Positions 4,654-55,853 of a stretch of 64,000 bases of DNA are shown piece by piece; positions within the stretch are counted from its first letter, which is position 1; the number at the start of each line of letters is the position of its first letter. The stretch spans positions 82,216 through 146,215 of the forward strand of contig JBJHCT010000001.1 in the NCBI GenBank assembly GCA_050486185.1. The letters run 5' to 3'. The notes beneath the pieces were generated by a model that saw only the letters and a program-made list of their open reading frames with translations, was not told the DNA's origin and did not search any database. Origin of the DNA: Candidatus Saccharimonadota bacterium. GTDB lineage: Bacteria > Patescibacteriota > Saccharimonadia > QS-5-54-17. Position numbers and translations under genes: made by a program.

Positions 4654-4758
4654 TTAATTAGCTATAAATAAAAATATCCCAAGGCGTAGGGGTAGAGCTG
4701 CTGCTGATGGTCGAAATTATCCGACCTAGAGCAGATACCCCCAGCCTCAGGAAGTTCA

Positions 4759-4956
4759 TCACCTCGACAGCAGTGCCGATCCGCTGCCACGGCTCTTCGT
4801 CGAGCTGGTGGTGGCCAAGCTGCCGTTGATCATGTCCAGGCCCGACTTGAGTTCAGGCCTCTGCTCAACGGCATCAGCAGCACTCTTCGCTTCACCACGA
4901 TTGATCATGCGAACGATCGCTCGGGCTGCCGTAACCGGCTTCTTGGTTTTTGACAT
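4759..4956 (-). CDS. Small (65 aa) basic Ala/Ser/Arg-rich protein encoded in a GC-rich island, translationally coupled to the upstream 609-aa gene
   Basis: An AGGAGA RBS overlaps the upstream TGA stop (aggagATGAcATG). GC-rich third codon positions are unlike neighbouring genes. No recognisable family. Confidence 0.45.
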   Translation of the reverse strand: MSKTKKPVTAARAIVRMINRGEAKSAADAVEQRPELKSGLDMINGSLATTSSTKSRGSGSALLSR

Positions 4957-4957
4957 G

Positions 4958-6787
4958 TCATCTCCTGATGAGAGACTCTCTGGCTATGAATACCAGAGGG
5001 TGTAGTTGGCTCGGTTTCAGTCTGTCGATGATCTCCTCAACAGCTAATAGGTTTTTATCCTCAATGGGGCCATCTTGCATCGATGACTGCCATATTAACT
5101 GAGAGGGAAATAGCTTGGCAAGGTAACGTGCTAAATTTACTCTACCATCTTTTCGCCAAGTTGCATAGTGATTAAGGTACATCGCCCCTATGGCAAATTC
5201 CGGATGACAGTACTCAGAAGTAGTATCAACCATACCTTGCTCATGGATACTGGATAGTGACACTAAACTTTTGCTGTATTGATCAGTCATAATTACGAGA
5301 GGCAGCATCTCGATGTAGCTATAGAACTTTTCTCTTGCAGAAGAGTCATAACGTATTTGCTGACAGATACTCTCCCAGGCCGATTTAAATAGCTCAACAT
5401 ATTTATCGTCTAGATCTTTTTGGCGTTTTTCATAACCATAATCTCTGACATCTTGTTTATTTTTGTAGAGTTTTTCCGCTTCAGATACAGCTTCGGTTAC
5501 TCTCATATCACCAGAAATATCTTCATACATAGCAATAACCATAAACTCAAATACATGCGATATATATTTTTTTAATATATCACTGTCTTTTGACTCAGGA
5601 TCTAGTATTTCGAATCCTCTGGTAGCTATTGATAGGATTGTTTCCTCCAGAGACTTCATTAGTAATTGAGGATTGGTGTTAATATTTTGCTCAGCAACCT
5701 CTGTTATTTGAGTGCGATTATCTCCTATATACCTAAAGCATTCAGCAAATCTTTTGTAGAAGTTAGATATAAGAGTATCTATACTGACATTTGCAACAGA
5801 ACTATTATTTTCGGGCTGCTTTAGTTGTTGGTATATTTTATCTATCTCTTCCTTGTTGATGGGAGTAGCGGCAAATATTAGCGAATAAGGATCTATCTGT
5901 ACCCAGTGCTCATCGCCATTGTCTATACGAGCCATAACACTGTGATGGAAGCTTTCCCTTCGGTGACTGCCTTGAAGTTGCTTGGGTGGGTCGAAGAAGG
6001 TATTAATAGCTGGTTCTTCTTCGACATATAGATCATTTATAAGCTGAATCTTATCGATAGTACTTAATACTTCTTGTCTTTGGAAAAATTCAGGAGCAAT
6101 TCGAGATAGATAGGCTACTATGTCCTGATGTCGTTCGGCTATAGTACCATCACTATACTTAATTTCGTTGGCAAACATATAGTCTAAACCCAATTCTTCG
6201 CAGGCTGCAGAAACAGCAATTGTTATACCTAAGCAATTGACGTAGTCACCATTAGGCCACTGACCGACTCTTACAGGCGAGGGGGATTCAGGGTCTTGTT
6301 CTAAATCTGTAATATTAATCTCATTATCTGCGATTTCAGGATGATGTTCGTGCCAGTTAGCACTATGCGTTAGTAAGTAGATAGCAAAAATAGATGCAGA
6401 AGTATCTTCAAGGCCAGGATTATTTTCTACTATTCTATCCTTAAAGTAATAAAAGTCCTCAGTTTGAGTTAGGTTTCTAGCTTTATCTATTAGAGACCTG
6501 CCAAGAAGTCTAACTTTAGCTATATTGACGATATCTTCATAACTGTATTCATCTGCTCTAGGTGGGCGTATAAATTCTACTTTGGCGATAGGGTCTTCGC
6601 AGTGGTATTCCTCTTGCTGTTCGGAATTAGTTATGGCGTCTTGATACTCTTGAACAAGCTCATGTATATGGGTGTCGTCGCAATGGTAATCTTCATCCAG
6701 AGCGCTAGAATAAGCCTCTTGCAATAGCTGATCAAACTCCACATTAGTATCTAACTCCGGCCTTCCGGCAATAGTTTCAAAACTCAT
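4958..6787 (-). CDS. Hypothetical 609-aa acidic cytoplasmic protein with no recognisable family
   Basis: Long uninterrupted ORF with host-like codon usage. No motifs I can assign. Confidence 0.6.
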   Translation of the reverse strand: MSFETIAGRPELDTNVEFDQLLQEAYSSALDEDYHCDDTHIHELVQEYQDAITNSEQQEEYHCEDPIAKVEFIRPPRADEYSYEDIVNIAKVRLLGRSLIDKARNLTQTEDFYYFKDRIVENNPGLEDTSASIFAIYLLTHSANWHEHHPEIADNEINITDLEQDPESPSPVRVGQWPNGDYVNCLGITIAVSAACEELGLDYMFANEIKYSDGTIAERHQDIVAYLSRIAPEFFQRQEVLSTIDKIQLINDLYVEEEPAINTFFDPPKQLQGSHRRESFHHSVMARIDNGDEHWVQIDPYSLIFAATPINKEEIDKIYQQLKQPENNSSVANVSIDTLISNFYKRFAECFRYIGDNRTQITEVAEQNINTNPQLLMKSLEETILSIATRGFEILDPESKDSDILKKYISHVFEFMVIAMYEDISGDMRVTEAVSEAEKLYKNKQDVRDYGYEKRQKDLDDKYVELFKSAWESICQQIRYDSSAREKFYSYIEMLPLVIMTDQYSKSLVSLSSIHEQGMVDTTSEYCHPEFAIGAMYLNHYATWRKDGRVNLARYLAKLFPSQLIWQSSMQDGPIEDKNLLAVEEIIDRLKPSQLHPLVFIARESLIRR

Positions 6788-7272: not shown

Positions 7273-7407
7273 AGTAACCATCAGATATAAGCATCTATAG
7301 GGGAGTAGGCTGTTTTTTGGTTGGGGCAACTAAGTTGACATTATGTAAAACTTATGCTAATAATATAGACATCAATTAAATCTAAAAATAAAAAAGGAAA
7401 TACAAAT

Positions 7408-7677
7408 ATGTCAGAGCTAATTACTCACGTCCCAGGTTTCGAATCAGACGATCATCAAAATCAACCCTCTGTAAATGAAGGGCGAGTAACAGAAGTAGAC
7501 CTATCGGAAGCAGATAAGGCTAGAATTAAGGCCAGAACTTTGGATGGTGAGAATATTATGCGGGCTGCCGCAGATAGCATTGCTGTTAATAAAGAACAAC
7601 TCGTTCTAGATGCCTCAGAGGATCAACCTGAAGGCGATCAACCCGAAATCATAACAAATGTACCTAGGGCTGAATAG
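7408..7677 (+). CDS. Hypothetical small acidic protein
   Basis: ORF only, co-directional with the FHA gene downstream. Confidence 0.35.
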   Translation: MSELITHVPGFESDDHQNQPSVNEGRVTEVDLSEADKARIKARTLDGENIMRAAADSIAVNKEQLVLDASEDQPEGDQPEIITNVPRAE

Positions 7678-7704
7678 ATAACTTGAGTCAAGGGAATTAA
7701 TGAA

Positions 7705-8382
7705 ATGCCTAAACATGAACGTAAACCAAGTACAGATACTGAAGATCAAAGCTACCCAGATGAATCTCTGAGTCGCTTAGCTGCTATGCGCCATGAAGCT
7801 GGGCAGAGAGTATATGAAGATGTTACTAGGCAGTTACAGTCTGATCGAAACCTGGAAGTACGAAAATTAGAGAGCAAGACTTCTTTTAGTTTTGACTCAG
7901 AAAAACATGGCTTTGCAGCGAGCTCAGAAAATGAAAGCAAGGGTGTGTTCCAAAGATTAGCTATGGTAATTAGAGCCGGGAACCAGATGTTTGCGGTTTC
8001 AAAAATAGAAGTTCAGGGCGAGTCTTTATGGGGTATATCAGTAGTCGGCGAAGGTGACGACGATAGAGCAAGATTTATAGCTCCTTTGCGACCTTTAGAA
8101 TCTCAAAACTCTACTGCTACATACTCTTTTGGTAGGGAGTTTTTAGGGGAAGTATCTAGTAGTAATCCAGACATGAGCAGTAGGCATTTTAATATATTTG
8201 TAGGTAGCGATTCGCAAGAACCAAGAATATCGGTAATGGATATAGACTCCACTAATGGAACCTATATTGCTACGAAGGCAACCGAGTCAGATCCAAGCAA
8301 GAATACAGCCCCTATCAGTGAGAGTTTGAGATGGTCGGTTCCGTCTGATGAGCTAATAACCCTAGTTGGCTCAGAAGCTTAG
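7705..8382 (+). CDS. FHA-domain protein
   Basis: C-terminal FHA-like segment RHFNIFVGSDSQEPRISVMDIDSTNGTYI (S-x-NGT signature). Confidence 0.55.
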   Translation: MPKHERKPSTDTEDQSYPDESLSRLAAMRHEAGQRVYEDVTRQLQSDRNLEVRKLESKTSFSFDSEKHGFAASSENESKGVFQRLAMVIRAGNQMFAVSKIEVQGESLWGISVVGEGDDDRARFIAPLRPLESQNSTATYSFGREFLGEVSSSNPDMSSRHFNIFVGSDSQEPRISVMDIDSTNGTYIATKATESDPSKNTAPISESLRWSVPSDELITLVGSEA

Positions 8383-18872: not shown

Positions 18873-18910
18873 TAAAGCCAATTATTTAAGTAACTAACCT
18901 AAATAAAGAG

Positions 18911-18943
18911 ATCTTGCAAATAACAGTTGCAAGATTTTTTATT
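18911..18943 (+). terminator. Rho-independent terminator
   Basis: ATCTTGCAA-ataacag-TTGCAAGAT perfect 9-bp stem followed by TTTTTTATT, directly downstream of the 18579..18872 gene. Confidence 0.7.
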
Positions 18944-19040
18944 GAGGCCTTTTGCATATAGCGTAAGCCTTATCTCTGCACACTCTATATAGCAAGGAAA
19001 CGCTTATGTTCGGTAAAAATTCGTCTGTATAAGTATAGAC

Positions 19041-29422: not shown

Positions 29423-30805
29423 TTAGCCTATACGGTAACGGATGATGACAATGCCGGAGCCGCCATTGCCGGCAACGGCTCCGCGACGACCACCACCCCC
29501 GCCTCCACCGGTGTTTGCCGCCCCATTGCCACCAACAGCCGCCCCTCCACCACCTTCTCCACCTAAGCCTTGCGACCCGCCGTACGAAGCGCCACCACCT
29601 CCACCTCCACGTGCGGTTGCTACTCCGGTAATAGAAGAGGTTAGACCTGCTCCTCCGTCACCACCCTTCGCACTTACGCCGTTCTGTCCCGCTACTCCTG
29701 CGCCACCACCTCCACCGGTAGAATAGTTGGATGATACTGCGTTACCACCGTTCGTACCCTGCCCAATAATGCCAACACCTCCGGTGGCCCCAGTGTTACC
29801 ACCACCACCGCCCGAGCCTCCTTGTGCGTTGCCCCGTTGGGAGCCGTCGCCTCCTTGTCCACCAACAGAAGTGATGGTCGAAAAGCTTGAGTCGCTCCCG
29901 TTGAATCCAGACTCTCCTCCGTTAATACCCCTTGATCCACCGGCACCGACGACGACCGTATGAACACCTTTGCTGATAAAAAATAATGGTTCGGCGACAG
30001 ATGAACCGCCAGACAGCTCACCCACGACAGCACACCGATAACCGCCTGCTCCACCACCTGCCGCAGAAGCGCCATCAGACGAGTCCGCTTCGCCACCCCC
30101 ACCCCCACCGATAACTAGATACTCAACCTCACCAGCGCCAGTAATAACCTCAAAAGATTGTGATGATCCAACTGTTGTGAAGTTATGTATACGGTAGATC
30201 TTGCCATCTATCTCTTCTTCGAAAACTTCATCTCCCCCTGTAGCAAAAAGAGACTGGATAAGTAGGCCGTTTTCGGTTAATACCCACTCATTCTGGGCCC
30301 TTTTTCTAAGTTGAGTTTCACCATACTTTCTAACAAAGTAGTATGGACCAGGAGCAAGAGGGCTTTTGGTACTAACGTTTTGGTTAGCGGTAACGGCTAG
30401 CTTGGCTTCATTATCTCTATATAGAGAGATTTTAGATCCTATCTCAAAGTTAGCCTCACTATCTTGGGGTACTTTAATGGTTACTACTTTGTTCTCATCT
30501 TCATCATCTAGGGTCAGGACTTTGCCAGCATCCTCTAGTGCTAGGGTGTATTCGTTGTTTATATCAGGAGTTAGAGCTTTTTCTTGGGCTATCTGGGTTT
30601 GATTAACACTTTCTTGGGTAGCTAATTCTGTAGGGTCAATTCCAGCTACATTAACACTACCATCAGCATTCATAGTGATTTGTGGGTTTACAGCATCAGG
30701 ATGTTTTAAAGACTTAGCATTTACACCACCTGAAGCATCCAACTTAATATTAGGCTCATTTGAGTCTGGATGCTGAATGTCATTGACTCTTAGCTTACTA
30801 CTCAA
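29423..30805 (-). CDS. Glycine-rich fibre/adhesin-like protein (N-terminal QHP..ADGSV repeats, central beta-rich region, about 200-aa poly-Gly C-terminal domain)
   Basis: N-terminal repeat shared with 18579..18872. C-terminal GGxGGxGG tracts resemble glycine-rich phage minor-tail or fibre domains. Last gene of a co-directional four-gene module. Confidence 0.55.
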   Translation of the reverse strand: MSSKLRVNDIQHPDSNEPNIKLDASGGVNAKSLKHPDAVNPQITMNADGSVNVAGIDPTELATQESVNQTQIAQEKALTPDINNEYTLALEDAGKVLTLDDEDENKVVTIKVPQDSEANFEIGSKISLYRDNEAKLAVTANQNVSTKSPLAPGPYYFVRKYGETQLRKRAQNEWVLTENGLLIQSLFATGGDEVFEEEIDGKIYRIHNFTTVGSSQSFEVITGAGEVEYLVIGGGGGGEADSSDGASAAGGGAGGYRCAVVGELSGGSSVAEPLFFISKGVHTVVVGAGGSRGINGGESGFNGSDSSFSTITSVGGQGGDGSQRGNAQGGSGGGGGNTGATGGVGIIGQGTNGGNAVSSNYSTGGGGGAGVAGQNGVSAKGGDGGAGLTSSITGVATARGGGGGGASYGGSQGLGGEGGGGAAVGGNGAANTGGGGGGGRRGAVAGNGGSGIVIIRYRIG

Positions 30806-30895: not shown

Positions 30896-33544
30896 CTACT
30901 CTTCCCTTCTCAATTTAACCACCTTGCCATGCTCTATAGTGTTATTATTTGTCTTTTTGGTGGGTAAACCTCCCTTATCATTTACACCTTTGTGATTATT
31001 CCCCCTGTTATGCCTGTTATTGTTCTGGTGGGTATTGTGTCGATTATTCTTGCCATTACCTTGCCTATTGTTGTTTTGCTGATTGTGCTGTTGGTTTGTA
31101 TGCTGGTTACTAGTTACATCTGCCCAGGAGCGAATCTCTGCTTCTACCTCTGCTCTAGAGGAGCTAAAGCTTCTAGAGTTTTCGATAATCTGCGGTATAA
31201 AATCTCCCGGTACCTCAGGGGTTTTAAGTGAAGTAGCGGCAAATGAAGAAACCTTCTCACCATCTATACTCATACTAATTACAAAGTGGCGGTTGTTGAG
31301 TTTGACTAGATCCTCTCCCTCGAAGGTAGGTGCGAAGTATTTAGCTAAATACGGAGCATCATCAGCACTGACCCTGAAGGATATAATTGTGCCTACGTTA
31401 CCAAATACAGCATCTCTGACCTCTTGAGACATCTGAGAGATGTATTGGTTGGCTATAGTTAGGTTTAATCCATATTTCCTAGCTTCAGATAAGATAACAG
31501 CAAAGGAATCAGTAGCGAAGTTCTGGAACTCATCGACGTATAGGTTAAAGGGCCTCCTATTCTCAATACCAGGTATATTAGCTCTACTCATGGCGGCTAA
31601 CTGGATTTTAGTCACCATCAGCGAGCCTAATGTAGCAGCGTTATCCTCTCCTACCTGTCCGCGTGATAGATTAACTATGAGGATCTTACCCTCATCCATC
31701 ATCTCCCTGATGTTGAAAGCGCTTTTAGGCTGCCCTATGATGTTTCTCATCAATGGATTAGCTGTAAAGGCTCCTACCTTGTTTAGAATCGGTGCTACGG
31801 CCTCTGAGGCGAACTTATCGTTCCAAGAAGCAAACTCATTAACCCAGAAGTTTTTCACTACTGGATCCTCAATACTATCTATGACTTTTTGACGATATCC
31901 CTTCTCGGTTAACATCCTAGTAATCCCTAGTAGTGTGGCGTTAGGATAGTCTAATAAGGCTAGAATGGTATACCTGAGGATATATTCTAGTCTTGGACCC
32001 CAAGAGTAGCCAAACATGCGCTTCAAAGACCCTACCACTTCTGATGATATATGTCCCTTTAAGCTTGGATCGGTGACTTCAAGGGGGTTAAAAGCTATGG
32101 GGTACTCAGTATCAGCTGGATTAAAATAGACTACGTCCTTAACCCTATCTTCAGGGATGTAGCGCAAGATATCGTTGGCAAAGTCACCGTGTGGATCAAT
32201 TACGGCAAACCCCTGATCATAGTAGACGTCAGATAGGGCTAGAAGTAGCATCAGGTGGGATTTACCGGTACCGGTTTGTCCTACTATATAGGTGTGTCTA
32301 CCTCTATCGCTTCTTTTGAGTCCGAACTGTCGGTGTTGACCCCTGAAGTTAGTTACTCCTATAGTGCTGAGTTCTCCGGGTTCAACTAGTTGCGGTGTAG
32401 GTATATTCGATGGCGGCTCAGCAGTTTTACTCTGAGCCCATATCATACTCGGAGTCTCAACATTGGCATGTGGTAGGTGATAAAGGCTAGCTAGTTCCTC
32501 AATATTTAGAACAAAACCTTTGTCCAAAAAGACTCTGGAGCGATACCGGCGCAAAGCCTCCTCTTGATAGTAGTGCTTTTTAATTTTGAAACTGTTGGTA
32601 TTATCATTAAACTGTTTGAAAGCACCGACCAGGGCCTGAATTCTCAGTCTAGATAGGTTTTTGTCGTTGCCTACATGACAAAGTCTAATACTAACTTCAT
32701 AACCGAGCTTTGAAATTTTGTCATTAACTCCTTGGACCATGGCTTTTTGTTGATCGGATAACTCTGCTGGCCCACCTTTTTCTCCTGCTTCTGGTGGTTT
32801 CCAGATAGCGATGAATAAATCATGAATTAACTTCTGTAACCCTCCTAAGAAACCCTCAAAACTCTTGCCGCTACTGCCATTTCGCAGTTTATTAATAAAG
32901 GTCTCTCCCCGTTTATGCCAGCTATCTTCCAGGGGTCTAGCCATAATCTGAATCCAAGCTTGTTCATTTTCTTCCTCTAGTTTTGATAGTACCGCTGTAA
33001 TACCGCCCAAAGGATCGACCTCGAAGCTGTTAAAGGTGCGTATCGGTAGAACGTCGCTATTAGTTAACCCTAACTCCACAGAGTGAGCTTGAACTTCTTC
33101 ACCAAACTCTTTACGGGAATAATCCTCTTCAACCTCAACGATATTAACACTAGGATACTGGGCGTAAACCTGTCCCTCTACGAAGTTACGTAAGTGTTTA
33201 GGAGTCCAGATAAAGAATCTAATATGCTTATCAACAGAGACGATTTCAAAGCTGATATGTTCTTGCAAAGCCCCTTCTTTAAGCAGTTCTTGTCTAGGCC
33301 TTAGGATTCCGTGCAGACTGGCAAATAGCTGCTCGGCTGATAGCTCAGCCTTGTCGTTCTCTCTAGGTACTTCCAGTAGTAGTAGTGAGTACTGGCTATC
33401 ACTCACCCACTTCTGCTTGCGTATGTTTTGCCAAATCAGAAAAGCTAGGACTATAACGATAACTATCCAGCCTCCCCAGTCGAAGATTAATCGACCCAAG
33501 AACTGGATAATAGTAAACAATACTTCAAAAACAATATTCATCAC
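30896..33544 (-). CDS. Membrane-anchored P-loop NTPase of the HerA/FtsK/VirB4-TraG (AAA_10/DUF87-like) class with a C-terminal Q/N/H-rich low-complexity tail
   Basis: N-terminal transmembrane helix. Walker A YIVGQTGTGKSHLM, followed by AVIDPHGDF as in HerA/VirB4-type ATPases. Walker B NLYVDEFQNF, then TIANQ. About 70 aa of N/Q/H-rich tail. Confidence 0.55.
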   Translation of the reverse strand: MMNIVFEVLFTIIQFLGRLIFDWGGWIVIVIVLAFLIWQNIRKQKWVSDSQYSLLLLEVPRENDKAELSAEQLFASLHGILRPRQELLKEGALQEHISFEIVSVDKHIRFFIWTPKHLRNFVEGQVYAQYPSVNIVEVEEDYSRKEFGEEVQAHSVELGLTNSDVLPIRTFNSFEVDPLGGITAVLSKLEEENEQAWIQIMARPLEDSWHKRGETFINKLRNGSSGKSFEGFLGGLQKLIHDLFIAIWKPPEAGEKGGPAELSDQQKAMVQGVNDKISKLGYEVSIRLCHVGNDKNLSRLRIQALVGAFKQFNDNTNSFKIKKHYYQEEALRRYRSRVFLDKGFVLNIEELASLYHLPHANVETPSMIWAQSKTAEPPSNIPTPQLVEPGELSTIGVTNFRGQHRQFGLKRSDRGRHTYIVGQTGTGKSHLMLLLALSDVYYDQGFAVIDPHGDFANDILRYIPEDRVKDVVYFNPADTEYPIAFNPLEVTDPSLKGHISSEVVGSLKRMFGYSWGPRLEYILRYTILALLDYPNATLLGITRMLTEKGYRQKVIDSIEDPVVKNFWVNEFASWNDKFASEAVAPILNKVGAFTANPLMRNIIGQPKSAFNIREMMDEGKILIVNLSRGQVGEDNAATLGSLMVTKIQLAAMSRANIPGIENRRPFNLYVDEFQNFATDSFAVILSEARKYGLNLTIANQYISQMSQEVRDAVFGNVGTIISFRVSADDAPYLAKYFAPTFEGEDLVKLNNRHFVISMSIDGEKVSSFAATSLKTPEVPGDFIPQIIENSRSFSSSRAEVEAEIRSWADVTSNQHTNQQHNQQNNNRQGNGKNNRHNTHQNNNRHNRGNNHKGVNDKGGLPTKKTNNNTIEHGKVVKLRREE

Positions 33545-33603
33545 CAGTAATTATACCTATTAAAGAGCTAAATCTAAAATCGGTAATAATATACAACTAC
33601 CTC

Positions 33604-34074
33604 TCATCTTAGACGGGCCGGTTTTGAATTATCTGGCTTATTTGCAAATCTAGGCCAAAGCAGAGCCTGTTTATCCATATTCCAAAGTCGCGCTGTAACC
33701 ACAACTCCGTTAGCTCTTGTCTTATTAAGGCTCCTTAGGTCAACCACTAATTGCCTAGTTCCATCGAAACACACACTCCTAAATTTCTGAAATGACCACT
33801 CAGTATTAGGTCCCCGTGTCCGGGCTTCCTGTAGTTTAGTTATATCTTGATCCTGATCAAGTACAACTTCTCTATCTAGGTATACTAGCTTATTTCTGTG
33901 ATGAACCGTTAAGTTGTTGAGATACTTAACCACAGCATCAATATTTGTATCGACTTCTCCTCGTAAATGGCTACCAAAGCAATCAATAGAGGCAGCGATA
34001 TATAGATCATCTTGCTTTGGAGCTTCTGGGCTTAATATGGGTGGAGGGGGAGCCTCGAAAAGAGACCTTGGCAT
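33604..34074 (-). CDS. Hypothetical 156-aa protein (Pro-rich N-terminus)
   Basis: ORF only, lying between the regulator and ATPase genes of the module. Confidence 0.4.
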   Translation of the reverse strand: MPRSLFEAPPPPILSPEAPKQDDLYIAASIDCFGSHLRGEVDTNIDAVVKYLNNLTVHHRNKLVYLDREVVLDQDQDITKLQEARTRGPNTEWSFQKFRSVCFDGTRQLVVDLRSLNKTRANGVVVTARLWNMDKQALLWPRFANKPDNSKPARLR

Positions 34075-34084
34075 ATTTTTAGCT

Positions 34085-35146
34085 TTACCCCTCAGCTAAG
34101 GCATAAGTAGCTTTAGATACGCGCTTAAACTTATCCTTGCTCTGCAAGTTCAAAACTACAGTAGTTGGTTTGACCTGTCTTTGTTTTAAGACTCTTTTAA
34201 CAATTTCATCTCGGTGAAGGGGTGACTCATCTTTAAGGATAGCCTCAATTACGTCCGATACTGTGCCTTGAGAAAAGCCCCACTCATTAAGAGCATAAAT
34301 ACCTCTACCGACTAGTACGAAACGAGAGTCTTTAATTAGCTCGTTATGTATAGCTTGAGTAGTAACGTCTTTGCGGTGAAAATCTGAATTCTTGATATGC
34401 TCAGCAATCTCGTTAAAATGCATCGGCTCTTTTTCGCGACTTAAGACGATGTAGATCTTATCTCTAATGCTTTTGGGATTAACTTGCGGCCAAGAAACTA
34501 GACCCCACTTATCATCCAAAGTAGCGATATGCTTACTAGATCTAATCAGTCCATGTAAGTGGTGCTCTTCTAATTTACCGTTAATGTTCTGGTGTATATC
34601 ACTAAGTGATACGGGTTTGCCTAAAGTACGAATTGTTTTCACCACTTCGTCATGTAAGGTTTTAGTGGTTTTGTGATCTCCGTGGTGATCTTTTAAGGCG
34701 AGAGCATGGTGGAAGTCGTCATTTTCGTTAATGATCACAATCTCTGGTATGAGATGGGCCAAGAAATTGACGTGAGCATGTTCTTCTGTGCCGGAGTGAG
34801 TACTAACTTCATGCAGGGGTACAATGCGGCCTAAAGACTCTAGAGCGCCCAAGAAGTGCTCCTTCAATGATTCTTTGTGGTTATGTTCCATCTGCTGCAG
34901 TTTGGTCAGAGTCTGTTTTTCTATCTGACGTACACGTTCGCGAGTAATTCCAAGCAGCTTGCCGATTTCTTCCAATGTTTCTTTTCTATCTTGCAGTCCA
35001 AAGCGTCTAGTGATGATTTCTCTTTCTCGGTCTTTATCTATAGTATCTAGAAAATCATTAACTATTTGAGCAATGTCTAAGCTTGGCTTGGCAGTAGTTT
35101 CCATCCGGCACCTTTCACTTTTTAGCTTTCTTTGATTATAAAACAA
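34085..35146 (-). CDS. Sigma-70 region-4 HTH fused to two HARE-HTH (RNAP-delta N-terminal-like) domains; probable transcription factor
   Basis: [25 protein letters not shown] is a sigma70_r4 signature. Two winged-helix HARE-HTH-like units: [13 protein letters not shown]...[17 protein letters not shown] and an earlier degenerate copy. A more likely start is the ATG at 35104 (METTAK), which has a GGTG RBS. Confidence 0.5.
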
Positions 35147-35193
35147 GGAGTATTCGGTGTCAATTGAAATTTATCAATAAATGTTATCTATAT

Positions 35194-37479
35194 CTATTTT
35201 TTCTTGCCACGTTTTTTCTTATCAGGCGCCTTAGCAATCATGTCTTTAGCCTTGTCTTCATCGATAGTTTCAGGATCGACATCTTTAGGTACACTGACGT
35301 TTTTCTTACCATTAGTAACGTAGGGTCCGAAGCGACCATTGAGGACTTTGATATCTCCAAAAACAGCGATTTGTTGGTTTTTTACTTTCTCAATCTTCTC
35401 AGCTATAGCTAACTTAGCTACATCTTCGGTCACGGTCAGCGGGCCGTGAGTATTAGGTATAGGAGCATAGGTAGAGCCGGCTTTAACGTAGGGTCCGAAA
35501 CGACCGAAATTGGCAGTGATCTCTTGACCATCATCGGTCTTACCTACCGTTCGCGGTAGTTCGAATAACTCCAAGGCTTCTTCTAGAGTGATATCTTCTA
35601 TGCGTTTATTCTTTGGTATGGGAGCGAATTTAGGTTTCTCACCATCTTTATCGGCATGACCTAGCTGCAACATCGGGCCATATCTACCCATGCGCGCAAT
35701 GATGGGTTTATTACTTTTAGGGTCTATACCTACTTCCCTAGCACCGCTAGCTTCTTCACGGGATACATCTTCAGCTTCTTCAACCAATTTATGAAATGGC
35801 TTGTACCAATCGGCTATCATGCGGTTCCACTTTTCTTTACCCTGAGCTATTAGGTCGAACTCTTCTTCAGCTTCTTTAGTGAAGTCGTAATCAACGATAT
35901 GGGTAAAGTGTTTGCTTAAAAAGTCGTTGACAAGTATAGCTATCTGGGTCGGCAGTAGCTTATTGCGATCTCGGCCATATTCGATTGTTTCGGTTTCTTC
36001 TTGCAAGCGATTATTTTCTAGTTTGATGATAGTGATTTCTTTTTCGACACCTTCAACATCACCGCGCTCAACATACCCCCTATCCTGGATGGTATGGATA
36101 GTCGGTGCGTAAGTTGAGGGTCTACCGATACCCATCTCCTCTAATTTACGGACCAAAGCAGCTTCATTATATCTAGCTGGACCTCGCTTAATCGATTCTC
36201 TAGCTTCTAGAGTAATTAATTCTAGTGAATCACCTAAAGTAACTTGCGGTAGTAATACGTCCTCCATCTTGCTGTCTTGGTAGACCTTTAAGAACCCAGG
36301 GAATTTAATAACCTCGCCTTTAGCTACTAACATCTCTTCATGGTTACTACTAGCAATATGTATTTCGGTCTTCTCTAAAGTGGCCGGTGTCATCTGTGAG
36401 GCTAGAGTCTTGTTCCTAATTAGGCTATATAGTTTTTGCTGCTGCTCATCATCTCCGGCCGATTCTAGCTGTAAGTTCGTTGGCCTAATAGCCTCATGGG
36501 CTTCTTGAGCTCCGGCCTTTGATTTAAAATCTCTAGCCTGGTAATACTCCTCGCCATACTGACTTTTAATAACTTCAGTAATCTGAGTTTTGGCACTACT
36601 AGCTAAATTTACAGAGTCTGTACGCATATAGGTAATGTGTCCTGACTCATACAGTCTTTGAGCTAGTGTCATAGTCTGTCTAACGCTATAGCCTAGTTTG
36701 CGGGCTGCAGCTTGCTGCAGTGTTGAAGTAGTAAATGGTGGGCCTGGGTTGCGGTGAGTTGGCTTAGTATCGATCTCATCAACTTTGAAACTAGCATCGA
36801 TAGCTTGTTCTAGGAATTTCTTGGCCTCCGCATGCTCATCTATATAGCCCGCGAGTTTGGCAGGTAGTTCTTCACCAGACGCAGTTTTGAACGTAGCTGT
36901 TACTTTAAAGCGGTGTTCTGGGGTATAGTCTTTAATCTCTTGTTCGCGCTCAACTATTAGGCGCATAGCTACTGACTGCACACGCCCGGCGCTTAAGCCC
37001 GGCTTGACCTTTTTCCACAAGACCGGTGATATTTCATATCCGACCAATCTATCCAGCACCCTTCTAGCTTGTTGGGCATCGACTAGATTCTTATCGATCT
37101 CTCTAGGAGTTTTTATGGCACCGGTAACAGCTTCTTTGGTAATCTCGTGAAAAGCGATACGTTTAACTTGCTTCTTATCTAAATCAAGTGCTGCATGTAA
37201 GTGCCAGGCAATCGCCTCTCCTTCGCGGTCTTCATCGGTAGCTAGCCAAACAGTTTCTGCTTCACTGACTAGTTTCTTGAGTTTAGTAACCTGCTTTTTC
37301 TTATCCTCATTAACTTCATAGTTAGGCTCGAAGTTATTATCGATATCTATCCCCATATTTTTACTAGGTAGATCCCTTACGTGTCCATAGCTAGATGCCA
37401 CATGGTAGTCGCTGCCCAAAAACTTTTCAATAGTTTTAGCTTTGGCTGGGGATTCAACTATGACTAGGTTTTTGCTCAA
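35194..37479 (-). CDS. topA: DNA topoisomerase I
   Basis: MSKNLVIVESPAKAKTIEKFLG TOPRIM N-terminus and C-terminal zinc-ribbon-like repeats. Confidence 0.95.
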   Translation of the reverse strand: MSKNLVIVESPAKAKTIEKFLGSDYHVASSYGHVRDLPSKNMGIDIDNNFEPNYEVNEDKKKQVTKLKKLVSEAETVWLATDEDREGEAIAWHLHAALDLDKKQVKRIAFHEITKEAVTGAIKTPREIDKNLVDAQQARRVLDRLVGYEISPVLWKKVKPGLSAGRVQSVAMRLIVEREQEIKDYTPEHRFKVTATFKTASGEELPAKLAGYIDEHAEAKKFLEQAIDASFKVDEIDTKPTHRNPGPPFTTSTLQQAAARKLGYSVRQTMTLAQRLYESGHITYMRTDSVNLASSAKTQITEVIKSQYGEEYYQARDFKSKAGAQEAHEAIRPTNLQLESAGDDEQQQKLYSLIRNKTLASQMTPATLEKTEIHIASSNHEEMLVAKGEVIKFPGFLKVYQDSKMEDVLLPQVTLGDSLELITLEARESIKRGPARYNEAALVRKLEEMGIGRPSTYAPTIHTIQDRGYVERGDVEGVEKEITIIKLENNRLQEETETIEYGRDRNKLLPTQIAILVNDFLSKHFTHIVDYDFTKEAEEEFDLIAQGKEKWNRMIADWYKPFHKLVEEAEDVSREEASGAREVGIDPKSNKPIIARMGRYGPMLQLGHADKDGEKPKFAPIPKNKRIEDITLEEALELFELPRTVGKTDDGQEITANFGRFGPYVKAGSTYAPIPNTHGPLTVTEDVAKLAIAEKIEKVKNQQIAVFGDIKVLNGRFGPYVTNGKKNVSVPKDVDPETIDEDKAKDMIAKAPDKKKRGKKK

Positions 37480-37599
37480 ATCTTTAATCCTTTAATTTTT
37501 ATGCTTAGCTTTATATAACTTATATTAATCCTGGCAAAATGCAAACATCCTTAATATGTACACGAGTTGAGTTTTGATGTAAAGGTTTGGTTTTTGATT

Positions 37600-39162
37600 T
37601 TAGAACAAACTAGTCTGAGAGGGTCGGTTGTTAAAACCTCCAGTATCATCACTATCTTTTTTGATATCTTCATTGTTTTGACCCTTTTCTACCAACTCAA
37701 CTAAAAATCGATATATCTCGACCATAGCCAAAGTATCAAGGGCGCAATACTTTACTAGATCATCAAATATCTTGTCTTTATCTGGTGCTTTTTCAATAGC
37801 TGCTTTGTACCAAGAACTTTGTGCGCTCATGCCGTCGGCTATATCTAAATCTCGGTAACTTAGCTCTGGTGCGATGGCTGGCAAGACCTTTTTGATACTA
37901 GCACTACCGGCAAAGCTCTTGTCGATATACCAGCCCTTAGAAAAAGGTATCATCAAATCAACAATTCGCTTATTGACTTGTTTCATCCAACTCTTATATT
38001 CCGGTACCAACTCGCCCATATCGCTGTTTCTACCCATCTCAAAAGCCTGATACCAGACCAAGATACTTCCCTCACCTCCTAAGTCTTGATGCAATCTCTC
38101 AAGTAGTCTCGGTGTAGGGTTATCATCTCCTCTATCTAGGTATTCAAAATGCTGCAACTCACCCCCAGGGCTATCGAGTACATGCAAGGAGTACTGGAAA
38201 GGAATCTCTTGATAGGCGCCGGTGCCAGGATAGATCGGTACGGAATGTGAGACAGTCTCATAGTCTAAAAACCACAACGGAAACTCTAGCTTATTTAAAA
38301 ACTTCTCAATCTTCTCAAGTTCAATAGGCGGTGTTTCTTGCCAAGCTTTAATCTGGCTTTGTTGACGAGCATTAAAACCCTCTAGATCATTTACTTGCTT
38401 TAAGCTATCTACTCCACCAGCATGTAGCAGCTTTACATCTTCAGGTTTTAACTGAGCTAGCTTGTATATATGTTCCGGTGGTAGCTCTGGGTTTAAGTGT
38501 AAATACATCGGCAACCAAATACCTAAGTTACCGGCATATTCTAGGCCTAAATCTGGGCAGGTTTTTTGATCTAATACCTTTAAGGCTTTGGGTATTTGCT
38601 GCTCTACTTCAGGTATTCTCTGTTTGACTTTGTAGGTGATCTTTTTTTGACTGACTAGTAGCTCTGGTTCGATATTCTCTCCTCGTTTGTACTCTTTATT
38701 AACATAAAGTAGATAGATATCACCTACCTTGACCCCCATCTCCTCCCAGGCTACGGCCTGAAAAGCCAGATCCGATAGATGATCATCCTTCACGCTAGTT
38801 GAGCTCTTTACTTCATATAGGTCCCAAGTCTTGCCGCTACGTTTTAAGACGTCACTTTTAACTAGTAACCCTCTATCCGTAAATGCGGTGGCTTGAAAGA
38901 TTGTTTCAACACTCTCATCTTCCATTAGTCTTTTAGTTTGATTAACTAGCAGGTCAAACTCCCAAGGTTTAGCATCAACTAATTTAGCGCTCGGGAACAA
39001 TTTACGAGCTTGGGCTTCAAAAGCATGCCCTTTATCGAACATAAATTGATCGGACGTGGTTATCGGTGGTAGTTTCTTCTTATCGAACTTCTCTAGCCAT
39101 AAATAGCCTGGATGAATTAGCCAGTGCATGAAGTTGGATTTGGATAGGTATTTACTCAACAT
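37600..39162 (-). CDS. DUF2779-like protein with a RecB/Cas4-type PD-(D/E)XK nuclease core
   Basis: N-terminus LSKSNFMHWLIHPGYLWL resembles DUF2779 starts. TWDLYEVKSS looks like a hhDxK-type nuclease motif. Confidence 0.4.
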   Translation of the reverse strand: MLSKYLSKSNFMHWLIHPGYLWLEKFDKKKLPPITTSDQFMFDKGHAFEAQARKLFPSAKLVDAKPWEFDLLVNQTKRLMEDESVETIFQATAFTDRGLLVKSDVLKRSGKTWDLYEVKSSTSVKDDHLSDLAFQAVAWEEMGVKVGDIYLLYVNKEYKRGENIEPELLVSQKKITYKVKQRIPEVEQQIPKALKVLDQKTCPDLGLEYAGNLGIWLPMYLHLNPELPPEHIYKLAQLKPEDVKLLHAGGVDSLKQVNDLEGFNARQQSQIKAWQETPPIELEKIEKFLNKLEFPLWFLDYETVSHSVPIYPGTGAYQEIPFQYSLHVLDSPGGELQHFEYLDRGDDNPTPRLLERLHQDLGGEGSILVWYQAFEMGRNSDMGELVPEYKSWMKQVNKRIVDLMIPFSKGWYIDKSFAGSASIKKVLPAIAPELSYRDLDIADGMSAQSSWYKAAIEKAPDKDKIFDDLVKYCALDTLAMVEIYRFLVELVEKGQNNEDIKKDSDDTGGFNNRPSQTSLF

Positions 39163-42543: not shown

Positions 42544-42790
42544 GCTAGCTCTATATCAATTCTATTCTTTAAATCTACCTCTTTGATTTAATCTGTAATT
42601 TGCCCTGCTTGGTCCATTTAGAATTAGTGCCTTCAGAGCCTTGGCTAGTTGCTGCAATCTCACCTTGTTGAGTTAGTTTACGCCTATTTAACGTAACCTT
42701 ACTCCACTTACCTTGTTTGAGTACATATTTACTGTTTGCCATTATCTTATTTTAACATCTAGCAATTAATAAATCAGTTACTAACAAATA

Positions 42791-42863
42791 AAGTTTAGTC
42801 AGGTGGGGCGATGCGTTCAAGGGTCTCTGCAAGGTTGCCCCCGCTTGAGCATACTTGAACGCA
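42791..42863. repeat. Long imperfect inverted repeat (20/21-nt arms, 32-nt spacer) at the edge of a GC-rich island
   Basis: GGTGGGGCGaTGCGTTCAAG ... CTTGAACGCAaCCGCCCCACC, read directly from the sequence. Sits just 3' of the minus-strand gene 42888..43277. Confidence 0.6.
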
Positions 42864-42887
42864 ACCGCCCCACCTAGTGACCACTCA

Positions 42888-43277
42888 TCAGGGTATTGAA
42901 ACCCTCAGTTCCACAGGCTCCCACCTGCTCTGATCAGGCACCCACTGCAGGATCGGCCCCTTGGTCTGATCCATCAGGAAGCGCAGGAAGGGGTGGTTCG
43001 AGAGGACCTTGACCCAACCCTGAGGGATGCAGGTTGCCTCGATTTCATGAAGAACTCGAGCAGCCCCATCGCCCACGTATGTGGACTTCTTCAAGACCTT
43101 CAAGCAGTCCTGGTAGAAGCCATCTTCATGGGCGCAACAGGAAATCCTGTTGGTCGTGACCCGAAGGTCTTGTGTGAAGACGATTGGATGGAGGAGATCC
43201 CATCCCAGCCGTATCTTGAGCAGGTCAACTGCCTCGAGATCTTCGGCAACGTCCTTGCTGATAAGTGCTTTGGGCAT
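42888..43277 (-). CDS. Hypothetical 129-aa protein encoded in a GC-rich island, likely horizontally acquired
   Basis: About 57% GC with GC-rich third positions, against about 43% for neighbours. No recognisable motifs. Confidence 0.45.
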   Translation of the reverse strand: MPKALISKDVAEDLEAVDLLKIRLGWDLLHPIVFTQDLRVTTNRISCCAHEDGFYQDCLKVLKKSTYVGDGAARVLHEIEATCIPQGWVKVLSNHPFLRFLMDQTKGPILQWVPDQSRWEPVELRVSIP

Positions 43278-43413
43278 ATTCTGCCTTCTTTTCTCCCGCT
43301 ATCACCGAGTTGCGATAACAGATGATATTTTGCAATATATTAATATAGAAATCAAGCACTTAGACGGTAATATAAATGGCTTTGTGTGTCTGTTTATACT
43401 AAACTAAAAATCT

Positions 43414-43770
43414 ATGATAGAGCAGGAACCACAAGATAATACCGATGCAGGGCTAGAGGAAGTAGACTTAGGCGTAGATATAAACTCTCTAAGTTCTGAG
43501 GATTTGCATAGACTAGAACAATCTTTGATTGGTAAATTAGGTGAAGATGAGTATAGATACTTAGTAGATCAAGCTATTGCTTTAACAGTCCATATAGCCG
43601 GTACGGGTGATATACCGCCTGGCTATGATCCGGATAAAGACCCGATTTTAAAAAGAAGAGTTGAGGTTAGTAGAAAAGTGGTTATTGCTACTTTAGCTAG
43701 TGCGCTTGGGGTAGCTACTATAGGGGCTACTGTCTATAAATATAAAGGACACAAAAAGCGAAGATTTTAA
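43414..43770 (+). CDS. Hypothetical protein with C-terminal transmembrane helix
   Basis: ORF only. Confidence 0.35.
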   Translation: MIEQEPQDNTDAGLEEVDLGVDINSLSSEDLHRLEQSLIGKLGEDEYRYLVDQAIALTVHIAGTGDIPPGYDPDKDPILKRRVEVSRKVVIATLASALGVATIGATVYKYKGHKKRRF

Positions 43771-48875: not shown

Positions 48876-49156
48876 ACAACAACGATTCTATTGGTCAACT
48901 CCCAATCGGTTTCGTTTGTTTGCACTGGCACTGCCCAAAGTCAGTCTAAGACATACTTTTTAGGAACAAAAAATGTTTGCCCTCCAATTACATTCGTTCC
49001 TACTTGTCCTAGCTTTTGGGCATTGTCGTTTCTCTTCGATATATTTTACTTATAGCGGGTGTCGCTGCTATAATTCTAGTATCATCGAAGGGATACGTGA
49101 GGTCGCTAGATACTTATACCCCCACCCTAAGTATCTGTGGCCTCACTTATCTTTTT
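48876..49156 (+). ncRNA. Candidate ~280-nt non-coding RNA of unknown class, bracketed by the promoter at 48840 and the terminator at 49097
   Basis: Promoter and intrinsic terminator are both plus-oriented in a 430-bp spacer between two minus-strand genes. No convincing ORF. No RNase P, tmRNA or SRP signature recognised by eye. Confidence 0.35.
49097..49156 (+). terminator. Rho-independent terminator (about 16-bp interrupted stem + TTATCTTTTT)
   Basis: GTGAGGtcgcTAGATACTTA-loop-TAAGTATCTgtggCCTCAC followed by a T-run. The T-run is only on the plus side. Confidence 0.6.
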
Positions 49157-54537: not shown

Positions 54538-54613
54538 GGCCCCATCGTCTAGTGGCCTAGGACACCAGGTTCTCATCCTGGAAACCGGGGTTCGACTCCC
54601 CGTGGGGTCACCA
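54538..54613 (+). tRNA. tRNA-Glu (anticodon CUC)
   Basis: Hand-folded cloverleaf: acceptor GGCCCCA/TGGGGTC, anticodon stem CCAGG/CCTGG with loop TTCTCAT, T-arm CGGGG-TTCGACT-CCCCG, encoded CCA. Confidence 0.85.
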
Positions 54614-54719: not shown

Positions 54720-55853
54720 ATGCAATTAGGAAATTTCGTCAAACAACCACAAGGCTACAAGGCCTACATTCCTGCTGATTTTCCACCCTCAGAATCACTA
54801 TTGATAACACCAGATATTATTCTAGCTAATGATGCTGCGACTCGTGCACTCAGTAAACTGGATGGAGTGGCTCAGCTAATTCCTGATATTAACTTTTTCA
54901 CCTTTATGTATGTCCGCAAAGAAGCGGCGTTGTCTAGCAATATTGAGGGTACTAAAGCTACTATGCACGACTCCCTAAAGGCGGACATAGAAATAACGGA
55001 AGGTGTACCAAAAGATGTTGAAAATATTACCCACTATATATCTGCACTGAATTATGGTCTTGATCGTCTGAAGGATTTACCCTTGTCAACAAGGTTGATA
55101 AAAGAGATTCACAACAAGCTGATGGCCGGAACCGCTGAAGGTATAGGTAAAACCCCTGGTCAGATTAGAACTTCACAGAACTGGATCAATGGTACTAAAC
55201 CTGAGAATTCAGATTTCGTACCACCTCCTCCAACAGAATTGAGCAGGTGCTTAAAGGATTTCGATACATTTCTCAATACTGAGCAACCCTATACGCCGTT
55301 AGTGCAGGCTGCATTAATGCATGCTCAATTCGAAACAATTCACCCTTTCCTTGACGGTAACGGCAGGACCGGTAGACTACTAATTACGCTACATCTTTGT
55401 AGTACGGGTGTTTTAGAGTATCCAATCTTATATATTTCTGAGTACTTTAAAAAATATAGAGATGTTTACTTCGACAGACTATCAGGTTATCACAACGAAA
55501 GTGACATCAATGGGTGGCTACTATTCTTTTTGGAAGGAATTGAAACTGTGGCCAAGGAAGCAACTATAGTATCTAAAGAAGTTGTCAAGCTGCGTGAGCG
55601 TGATGGAGTAAAAATCCAAAGTTTAGGCGGAAGACAGTCCGAGTCAGCCATGAAATTACTCATGGGGCTATACAGGCAGCCAATAGTTGACGTAGCAACA
55701 GTAGAAAAAATAACAGGTCTTTCTAGACCGGCTGCTAACGCCTTGGTTAAGAAATTTACAGATATTGGAGTACTAGCTCAAGCTGATGAAGACACAAAAT
55801 ACGGACGTGAATTTAGCTATGACGAATATCTAGCTCTCTTCGTAGAAAAATAG
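54720..55853 (+). CDS. Fic-family protein (AMPylase-type Fic/DOC fold) with C-terminal winged-helix domain
   Basis: HPFLDGNGRTGRLL, the canonical Fic motif HPFx(D/E)GNGR. Confidence 0.85.
   Translation: MQLGNFVKQPQGYKAYIPADFPPSESLLITPDIILANDAATRALSKLDGVAQLIPDINFFTFMYVRKEAALSSNIEGTKATMHDSLKADIEITEGVPKDVENITHYISALNYGLDRLKDLPLSTRLIKEIHNKLMAGTAEGIGKTPGQIRTSQNWINGTKPENSDFVPPPPTELSRCLKDFDTFLNTEQPYTPLVQAALMHAQFETIHPFLDGNGRTGRLLITLHLCSTGVLEYPILYISEYFKKYRDVYFDRLSGYHNESDINGWLLFFLEGIETVAKEATIVSKEVVKLRERDGVKIQSLGGRQSESAMKLLMGLYRQPIVDVATVEKITGLSRPAANALVKKFTDIGVLAQADEDTKYGREFSYDEYLALFVEK

Follow-up and report, generated by a model that had tools for sequence, protein, structure and literature searches.

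The compositional, folding and homology data together suggest that a GC-rich island in the chromosome of a Saccharimonadales (Patescibacteria) bacterium is probably a self-contained, horizontally acquired, moron-like gene, and that the long inverted repeat on its 3′ side forms or protects the 3′ end of the mRNA. The proposal builds on: the anatomy of the island; its foreign composition; the presence of the homologous gene together with both of its stem-loops at an independent locus; and the preference of these stem-loops for pairing in the sense strand. Here, the window refers to the whole 64-kb stretch of DNA that was analysed.

In the arrangement that we propose, the acquired unit would span ~570 bp on the minus strand, within a variable stretch of the Saccharimonadales chromosome. 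Its elements would follow in the order: an AT-rich promoter; a stem-loop that lies at the 5′ end of the transcript or close to it; a Shine-Dalgarno (SD) sequence and start codon held partly in a small stem; the 129-aa ORF; and a stem-loop of 73–75 nt set 12 nt past the stop codon (Table 1).

Table 1. Features of the island and its immediate surroundings, in window coordinates.
Feature	Position	Strand	Remarks
Putative sigma-70-type promoter	43327..43355	(-)	TTGATT, 17 nt, CAAAAT; proposed from conservation
5′ stem-loop of leader	43295..43322	(-)	core 43298-43319, GUUAUCGC-N6-GUGAUAGC
SD-like AGAAGG and small stem around start codon	43273..43289	(-)	putative function
129-aa orphan ORF	42888..43277	(-)	GC 55.1%, GC3 0.677; tandem stops UGA UGA
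3′ stem-loop (the inverted repeat)	42801..42875	(-)	from sequence and folding; basal arms homologous to L002 hairpin
Apical variable part of 3′ stem-loop	42822..42853	(-)	internal loop and 6-bp sub-hairpin; sequence unrelated to L002 apex
U-rich stretch	42783..42793	(-)	CUUUAUUUGUU; begins 8 nt past 3′ stem; read from sequence, putative function
55-aa ORF downstream of hairpin	42575-42742	(-)	doubtful; not called in Logan annotation, no homolog in L004

The island is compositionally foreign to its host. Its GC content is 55%, as compared to 36–38% in the flanks, and the GC profile steps at both ends: from 20% at 42750-99 to 64% at 42800-49 on one side, and from 50% down to 28% at 43300 (28% across 43300-49) on the other. 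The third codon positions of the 129-aa ORF set it apart in the same way, with a GC3 of 0.677 versus 0.378 ± 0.038 (maximum 0.441) for the 37 window ORFs of at least 200 aa. A preliminary description of this DNA had reported GC-rich third positions, as found here, together with an overall GC content of 57% for the ORF, which the sequence lowers to 55.1%. That description treated the stretch as a compositionally anomalous island bounded by the repeat. The foreign composition is borne out, and the repeat does belong to the island, since the homologous locus L002 carries a related hairpin in the same place. The description counted this island as the second of its kind, but the first (29423-30805) corresponds to the C-terminal, Gly-rich half of a 460-aa protein, and a link between the two is ruled out.

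The inverted repeat is present where it had been placed, with a 20-bp stem, one bulge and a 32-nt apical part. Its basal stem is GC-rich, comprises 20–21 bp with one bulged U and one G·U pair, and is built from arm 1 (GGTGGGGCGATGCGTTCAAG, 42802-42821) and arm 2 (CTTGAACGCAACCGCCCCACC, 42854-42874), which are separated by 32 nt. An extra A-T pair lengthens the stem to 42801/42875, so that the whole stem-loop measures 73–75 nt, and on the sense strand it starts 12 nt past the stop codon of the 129-aa ORF. The predicted fold of this minus (sense) strand contains 20 pairs plus the apical sub-hairpin and has a minimum free energy of −55.7 kcal/mol (z = −6.9), a stability that none of 200 shuffles reaches; folding thus upholds the structure that had been described. 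The plus-strand fold of the same repeat has a predicted energy of −47.2 kcal/mol (z = −4.7). The sense strand is therefore 8.5 kcal/mol more stable than the antisense strand, a difference that arises from the G·U pair and the U bulge.

Across folding runs, the stability of the 3′ hairpin ranges from −52 to −56 kcal/mol. It is the most stable of 8,522 sliding 90-nt windows taken over both strands (−52.4 kcal/mol, with a mean of −16.3 and sd of 5.5), and the regions that follow 68 greedy gene calls contain no stronger structure (−55.7 kcal/mol, with a mean of −19.6 and sd of 9.3). Long hairpins at gene ends also occur at 4676-4765 and ~49085-49150, each of ~25 bp and each less stable than the hairpin of the island. 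The stem had been said to stand out from the other terminators of the window, and this is correct for the stability of the fold, but not for its length.

Comparison with known RNA families yields no assignment. In the Rfam scan, the 3′ hairpin has no match above noise: its miRNA-precursor-like matches score 16–20 bits, as compared to gathering thresholds of 83–297, and the sole match in the window that passes its threshold is a tRNA-Glu located elsewhere. ARAGORN found only this tRNA-Glu, and a tRNA-like element is ruled out. The suggestion of a structured RNA made in the preliminary description survives only in a limited sense, as a 3′-UTR stem-loop of an mRNA with no match to an Rfam family.

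We propose that the inverted repeat acts in the sense RNA as a 3′-end element of the mRNA. The stem is followed by UGACUAAA, and only afterwards by the U-rich CUUUAUUUGUU, which lies 8 nt on in the sense strand; a U-tract adjoining the stem is absent, in agreement with the earlier remark that no T-run directly follows it. The terminator scan does not include this hairpin among its calls. The U-rich stretch may be a displaced U-tract, and L002 contains CUUUUAU at the same offset from its stem. Canonical hairpin-plus-U terminators do occur in this host, for example at 18906-18946 and ~49085-49155, and efficient intrinsic termination by a stem that lacks an adjoining U-tract is therefore doubtful. 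Purified RNA polymerases fail to terminate in vitro at hairpins with no U-tract beside the stem, and in mycobacteria such hairpins have been proposed to stabilise RNAs or to define processed 3′ ends (PMC3993855). Because no U-tract adjoins the stem here either, the likeliest role of the 3′ stem-loop would be that of a barrier to 3′-to-5′ exonucleases or of an element that defines a processed 3′ end. It may also act as a weak or atypical terminator, helped in the window and in L002 by the U-rich stretch 8 nt downstream. A role as terminator for the plus-strand 203-aa gene is ruled out, as the two are 258 nt apart and the plus strand has no T-run after the stem.

At the other end of the unit, the putative promoter has a counterpart in the same position of L002 (TTGATT, 17 nt, TAGAGT). 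It scores 8/12 against a scan threshold of 9 and is absent from the scan list; it is proposed on the grounds of its conservation, and the start of transcription is a prediction. The 5′ stem-loop downstream comprises 8–11 bp, including U·G pairs that are formable only in sense-strand RNA, and ends 20 nt upstream of the ATG. This element is common to all three loci of the family, 20–24 nt before the first family gene; in L003, it lies 24 nt before the TTG start of the first of two paralogs. The consensus of the window and L002 is GUUAUCGC-N5/6-GYGAURGC, with a predicted stability of −18 kcal/mol and a z of about −3.5. Between this stem-loop and the coding sequence lies an SD-like AGAAGG (43289-43284; GAAAGG in L002), and GGCA (43285-82) can pair with UGCC (43276-73) across the start codon, as do GGCAU and AUGCC in the same place of L002. 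This end of the mRNA is probably protected or regulated by the 5′ stem-loop, which sits where the transcript is predicted to begin.

Among the homologous loci, L002 alone can be read on both sides of the gene, and its architecture is the same as that of the window: a −35/−10 promoter-like region; a 5′ stem-loop; an ORF; and a long GC-rich 3′ hairpin. This hairpin starts 9 nt past the stop codon and has a predicted stability of −43.3 kcal/mol (z = −8.2). Its basal arms, GGGCGGUGCGUCCA and UGGACGCACCGCC, match those of the window at 13 of 14 positions with one gap, a score that 4 of 2000 shuffles reach, and the apical parts of the two hairpins are unrelated. The occurrence of a homologous hairpin in the same place indicates that gene and hairpin were inherited together. 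Upstream, 80 nt are 77% identical between the two loci (z = 7.2), and the −35/−10 positions, the 5′ stem-loop and the SD are common to both. The coding sequences are 52% identical, and 38% identical at third positions. The non-coding elements are thus better conserved than the coding sequence, as reflected in a leader at 77% and an arm at 13/14 nt against coding sequence at 52%. The conserved unit also reaches past the GC-rich part and into the AT-rich promoter region.

The pattern of substitutions points to the strand on which these elements act. The 14 basal pairs shared between the window and L002 include one compensatory change (U-A to C-G) and two G-C/G·U changes, and in the 5′ stem-loop all 24 of 24 pair cells are paired across the three loci, a covariation that is drawn from two to three sequences and is statistically not significant. 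One U·G pair of the 5′ stem-loop is invariant in the three loci, and a second is U·G in two of them and U-A in the window. The two one-sided changes (U·G to U-A, G-C to G·U) keep pairing in the sense RNA, and the wobble positions would be A·C mismatches on the opposite strand. The 3′ hairpin has the same bias toward sense-strand pairing. Such a bias speaks for elements that work in the sense transcript rather than as a palindrome in double-stranded DNA.

The earlier position that the repeat is not a simple terminator holds, both for want of a U-tract adjoining the stem and through the primary-sequence conservation of the basal arms. The conservation of these arms and of the 5′ hairpin exceeds what a generic terminator or stabiliser would need, and hints at sequence-specific recognition.

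The 129-aa protein is a member of a very small family. A word-indexed search of 5.8 billion clusters matched it only to itself, in the NCBI contig (264,553 bp) and in a Logan assembly whose sequence agrees at 100% identity for 10.7 kb. Two real homologs of similar size emerged when 1.84 billion representatives were searched exhaustively with phmmer: P0002 at locus L002 (131 aa, 36% identity, E = 1e-5) and P0004 on contig L003 (135 aa, 30–32% identity, E = 2e-4). A third phmmer match, to a TPR protein, is spurious. Profile searching found no members beyond these two homologs; no family member was detected by tblastn against phage and plasmid collections, or by profile-guided scans of IMG/VR and JGI metagenomes. 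Across about 15 billion proteins, homologs of the 129-aa protein come from two further loci only. In L003, a divergent tandem paralog (231-707, TTG start; hhalign probability 94%, E = 1e-7) lies ahead of P0004, so the family comprises four genes at three loci. All are ~55% GC with a GC3 of 0.65–0.68, as compared to 0.41–0.52 in the ORFs that flank the homologs.

Annotation of these proteins gives little indication of function. The 129-aa protein and its homologs have no match in Pfam, PHROGs, PADLOC or NCBIfam, and the best match in a profile search of PDB sequences with the family is noise (E = 1.1). These searches reveal no recognisable nucleic-acid-binding, recombinase or nuclease domain in the 129-aa protein, which by residue count from the translation is slightly acidic. 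The family has a single conserved His, part of an HPF motif, and the L003 paralog has lost it. From the three-sequence alignment, two AlphaFold2 runs each gave a mean pLDDT of 51. A Foldseek search of the PDB with the second of these models (pLDDT 51) returned nothing at E ≤ 0.001, as expected for a poor model.

The island lies among ordinary chromosomal genes, including those for a P-type ATPase, pterin dehydratase, topoisomerase, DprA, Pth, Der and a two-component system. Pfam annotation of the ~23 kb around it (about 32.9-55.9 kb) identified no integrase, transposase, phage gene or recombinase, and its neighbours have no PHROG match. The closest relative found is L004 (MAG JBBDOS010000004.1), whose P-type ATPase is 84% identical in amino acids to the one adjacent to the island. 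This was the best ATPase match among the species representatives, which therefore do not include the genome of the window itself. The flanking 203-aa protein has a single homolog, in L004 (65% identity; annotated Candidatus Saccharimonadales), indicating that the databases hold no closer genome.

Gene order in L004 runs: ATPase; a 111-aa paralog; helicase; a 128-aa ortholog of the 118-aa gene of the window; three unrelated genes (206, 271 and 125 aa); and the ortholog of the 203-aa gene. Between its 118-aa and 203-aa genes, the window has the island and the doubtful 55-aa ORF only. The different gene content of this interval shows that the island occupies a stretch where genes have turned over, and the relative lacks the island. 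L004 is the only usable relative, and its intergenic DNA is too diverged from that of the window for exact insertion boundaries to be mapped. In the comparison of loci that had been suggested, gene and hairpin occur together in L002, and the interval in L004 contains the three unrelated genes and no island.

The main alternative, which we regard as unlikely, is that both stem-loops are sequence-specific recognition sites rather than generic structures of RNA ends. They could be RNA operators for post-transcriptional autoregulation, with the encoded protein or some host factor as the binding partner; or they could be recombination handles that let an unsampled donor element swap divergent ORFs, much as gene cassettes are swapped. 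The conservation of the flanks above the coding sequence (the leader at 77% and the basal arm at 13/14 nt, with the coding sequence at 52%) is consistent with this, as is a basal stem that is conserved with an apical part free to vary. The family members are moreover all foreign in composition to their flanks, which suggests a shared, unsampled donor pool. Against such recognition are the slightly acidic character of the protein and the missing nucleic-acid-binding, recombinase and nuclease domains; the 5′ and 3′ hairpins, which are unrelated to each other; and the number of loci, which is three. The leader pattern is likewise never found before another cargo gene in the JGI metagenomes or IMG/VR, where its three matches and one match, respectively, all fall inside unrelated coding sequences and represent chance. 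Carried further, the promoter-leader stem-loop and the 3′ basal stem could form a recognition chassis of an unsampled mobile gene pool in Patescibacteria, which would bracket fast-evolving small ORFs and mediate either the exchange of these ORFs, which would amount to a new type of cassette system, or their autoregulation through the protein that they encode. We consider this more elaborate version improbable.

Three further readings concern the 3′ hairpin alone, and even jointly they carry only a small share of the probability. A small structured RNA gene in its own right, or a cis-regulatory RNA acting on the 55-aa ORF, would fit the very stable and strand-biased predicted fold of the hairpin and the position of the small ORF, which follows on the same strand. 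This is nonetheless very unlikely, as Rfam gives nothing above noise and the 12 nt between stop codon and stem hold no promoter of its own; the L002 hairpin precedes an unrelated gene, and the 55-aa ORF is uncalled in the Logan annotation and without a homolog in L004. An imperfect, GC-rich, intergenic palindrome that adjoins the 129-aa ORF could also be a REP/MITE-like dispersed repeat, as proposed in the preliminary description, or one end of a small element of the IS200/IS605 kind. Elements of the IS200 type are small, with hairpin ends and a stem over the ribosome-binding site, and the present unit resembles them in its size (<700 bp), its one ORF of ~130 aa, its structured ends and the small stem over its translation start.

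The evidence on dispersal makes either form of this idea highly improbable. The arm occurs once in the window at ≤3 mismatches; ~1.0 Mb of fetched Patescibacteria loci contains no related arm except the homologous L002 site; and IMG/VR contains 0 matches to the arm pattern and 0 to a two-arm pattern. Terminal inverted repeats and target duplications are not convincingly present, as the unit is flanked only by 8-nt matches at chance level. Unlike IS200/IS605 elements, the island has no HUH/Y1 transposase (TnpA) signature by Pfam, NCBIfam, PDB or conserved columns, which contain no HUH motif; its 5′ hairpin (GUUAUCGC...) and 3′ hairpin (GGGCGGUGCGU...) are unrelated; it is single-copy in the DNA searched; and it has no flanking target motif.

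The earlier alternative of a recombination site marking the island boundary fares no better. In its most specific form, the hairpin would be an integron attC closing a gene cassette, and the resemblance is evident in that a small ORF has an imperfect inverted repeat of ~73 nt, including an extrahelical base, just past its end; attC sites span 57–141 bp, so that the repeat falls within the 60–140-nt class. Its outer ends, GGTGGGGCG...CGCCCCACC, do not however carry the core sites R'' RYYYAAC and R' GTTRRRY, and these missing cores bring the attC reading close to refuted. In contrast to an integron cassette, a conserved promoter-like region and leader of its own precede the ORF; no integrase occurs among the Pfam-annotated genes of the ~23 kb around the island, and the window holds no cassette array. 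The pattern of wobble pairs and bulge favours the ORF strand as RNA, and the conserved unit extends past the GC-rich part. Taken together, this leaves an attC origin barely credible.

On the preferred reading, of an acquired gene with a hairpin at its mRNA 3′ end, the island would illustrate, cleanly and on a small scale, how a reduced Saccharimonadales genome has recently acquired a gene. This gene would have arrived with a full set of predicted expression signals, and it has kept a GC3 of 0.68 versus a host average of 0.38. Its donor pool is essentially unsampled, as reflected in three loci among about 15 billion proteins. Specific recognition of the stem-loops, if true, would represent a new regulatory or cassette-exchange mechanism; otherwise, this is an ordinary case of an orphan gene with a strong 3′ hairpin.

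Among known systems, the 3′ hairpin is most readily compared with intrinsic (Rho-independent) terminators and with stem-loops that stabilise mRNA 3′ ends. A canonical intrinsic terminator has a U-tract of at least 3 and usually 7–9 U immediately adjoining its stem. The hairpin is like such a terminator in being a GC-rich RNA hairpin on the sense strand just past a stop codon. It is unlike one in several respects: the stem is ~2× the usual length and carries a 32-nt apical insert; no U-tract occurs within 0–2 nt of the stem, the U-rich sequence lying 8 nt on; and the primary sequence of the arms is conserved between loci with proteins of only 36% identity. Known 3′ stem-loop stabilisers include REP-type elements and the 'retroregulators'. 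The island shares with 3′-UTR stabilisers and with the mycobacterial hairpins lacking a U-tract a strong hairpin at the 3′ end of a gene, but unlike REP-type stabilisers this hairpin is single-copy where searched and is tied to one rare gene family.

The whole unit compares best with the morons of phages, which are defined by their own promoter and terminator and by a deviant GC content (PMC3594210). Two features separate the island from a phage moron: it lies outside any recognisable prophage, among chromosomal neighbours with no PHROG match; and its hairpin is non-canonical, with no adjacent U-tract. As the neighbours are ordinary chromosomal genes and not a prophage, the term moron applies by analogy only. 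In its favour, the island consists of a single small ORF with a predicted promoter-like region and a predicted terminator-like hairpin of its own, has a GC content sharply unlike that of its neighbours, and has no counterpart in the matching interval of the closest relative. An acquired orphan gene with its own expression signals is a known kind of element, and the one curious feature here is a pair of stem-loops conserved above the protein that they enclose.

The host employs intrinsic terminators of the ordinary type, as shown by two predicted ones, each a hairpin with an adjacent U-run (49085-49155 and 18906-18946). The hairpin 3' of the GC-rich 129-aa orphan gene, which has no U-tract adjoining its stem, stands out for this reason. 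The second most stable fold in the window upon local folding, at -46 kcal/mol per 90 nt, is a hairpin at 4676-4765 that has no match in Rfam. On the minus strand its stem is followed, after 8 nt, by a U-rich run; the 129-aa gene shows the same offset, as does L002, the contig of a homolog with 36% identity.

Features of the window and the complementary region in L002
Feature	Position	Strand	Description
Terminator hairpin	49085-49155		adjacent U-run; stem ~25 bp; between convergent genes
Terminator hairpin	18906-18946		adjacent U-run
Long imperfect hairpin	4676-4765		flanked by convergent genes 3058-4653 (+) and 4759-4956 (-, 65 aa) / 4958-6787 (-)
Tandem-stop region	42882-42892		CUGAUGAG; complementary to codons 5-7
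Tandem-stop region, L002	904-912		CGGCUGAUA; complementary to codons 5-7
118-aa tail-anchored protein gene	43414-43770	+	divergently transcribed; motif PPGYDP
55-aa ORF	42575-42742	-	very basic; directly downstream of island hairpin, same strand
Gene cluster	30896-38500		882-aa DUF8128/DUF87/TrwB-like ATPase, sigma-70-like protein, type IA topoisomerase, DUF2779
tRNA-Glu (CUC)	54538-54613		sole tRNA gene of the window
Fic/DOC-family gene	54720-55853		after tRNA-Glu gene

Codons 5-7 of the orphan gene (CUUAUCAG; window 43255-43265, L002 532-540) are complementary to the tandem-stop region at both loci. This match suggests possible pairing between the 5' and 3' ends inside the mRNA. The complementarity may instead be due to chance, as the 5' part is constrained by conserved LIS residues. 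A third locus of the family, on the ENA contig L003, carries two tandem divergent paralogs (231-707 and 751-1158). The true start of the first is a TTG codon missed by the gene caller, and the conserved leader stem-loop, at 185-206, precedes this paralog only. The L003 sequence stops 19 nt past the stop codon of the second, too early for a 3' hairpin to be assessed.

The neighboring 118-aa protein has two paralogs in L004, the closest available relative (5203-5538 and 7392-7778), each in a different neighborhood. It is a member of a small lineage-specific family that has no assigned function and borders variable segments. The 55-aa ORF is AT-rich and host-like in composition. The Logan annotation leaves it uncalled and L004 lacks a homolog of it, so it is unlikely to be a gene.

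The first GC island (29423-30805, minus strand) encodes the C-terminal half of a protein of 460 aa, and its product is mostly Gly-rich low-complexity sequence encoded by GGN codons. A foreign island at this position was rejected, the GC richness being a compositional effect of the Gly-rich protein. tRNA genes are often integration sites, and the tRNA-Glu gene lies ahead of the Fic/DOC-family gene. The cluster containing the TrwB-like ATPase recalls modules related to conjugation or type IV secretion.
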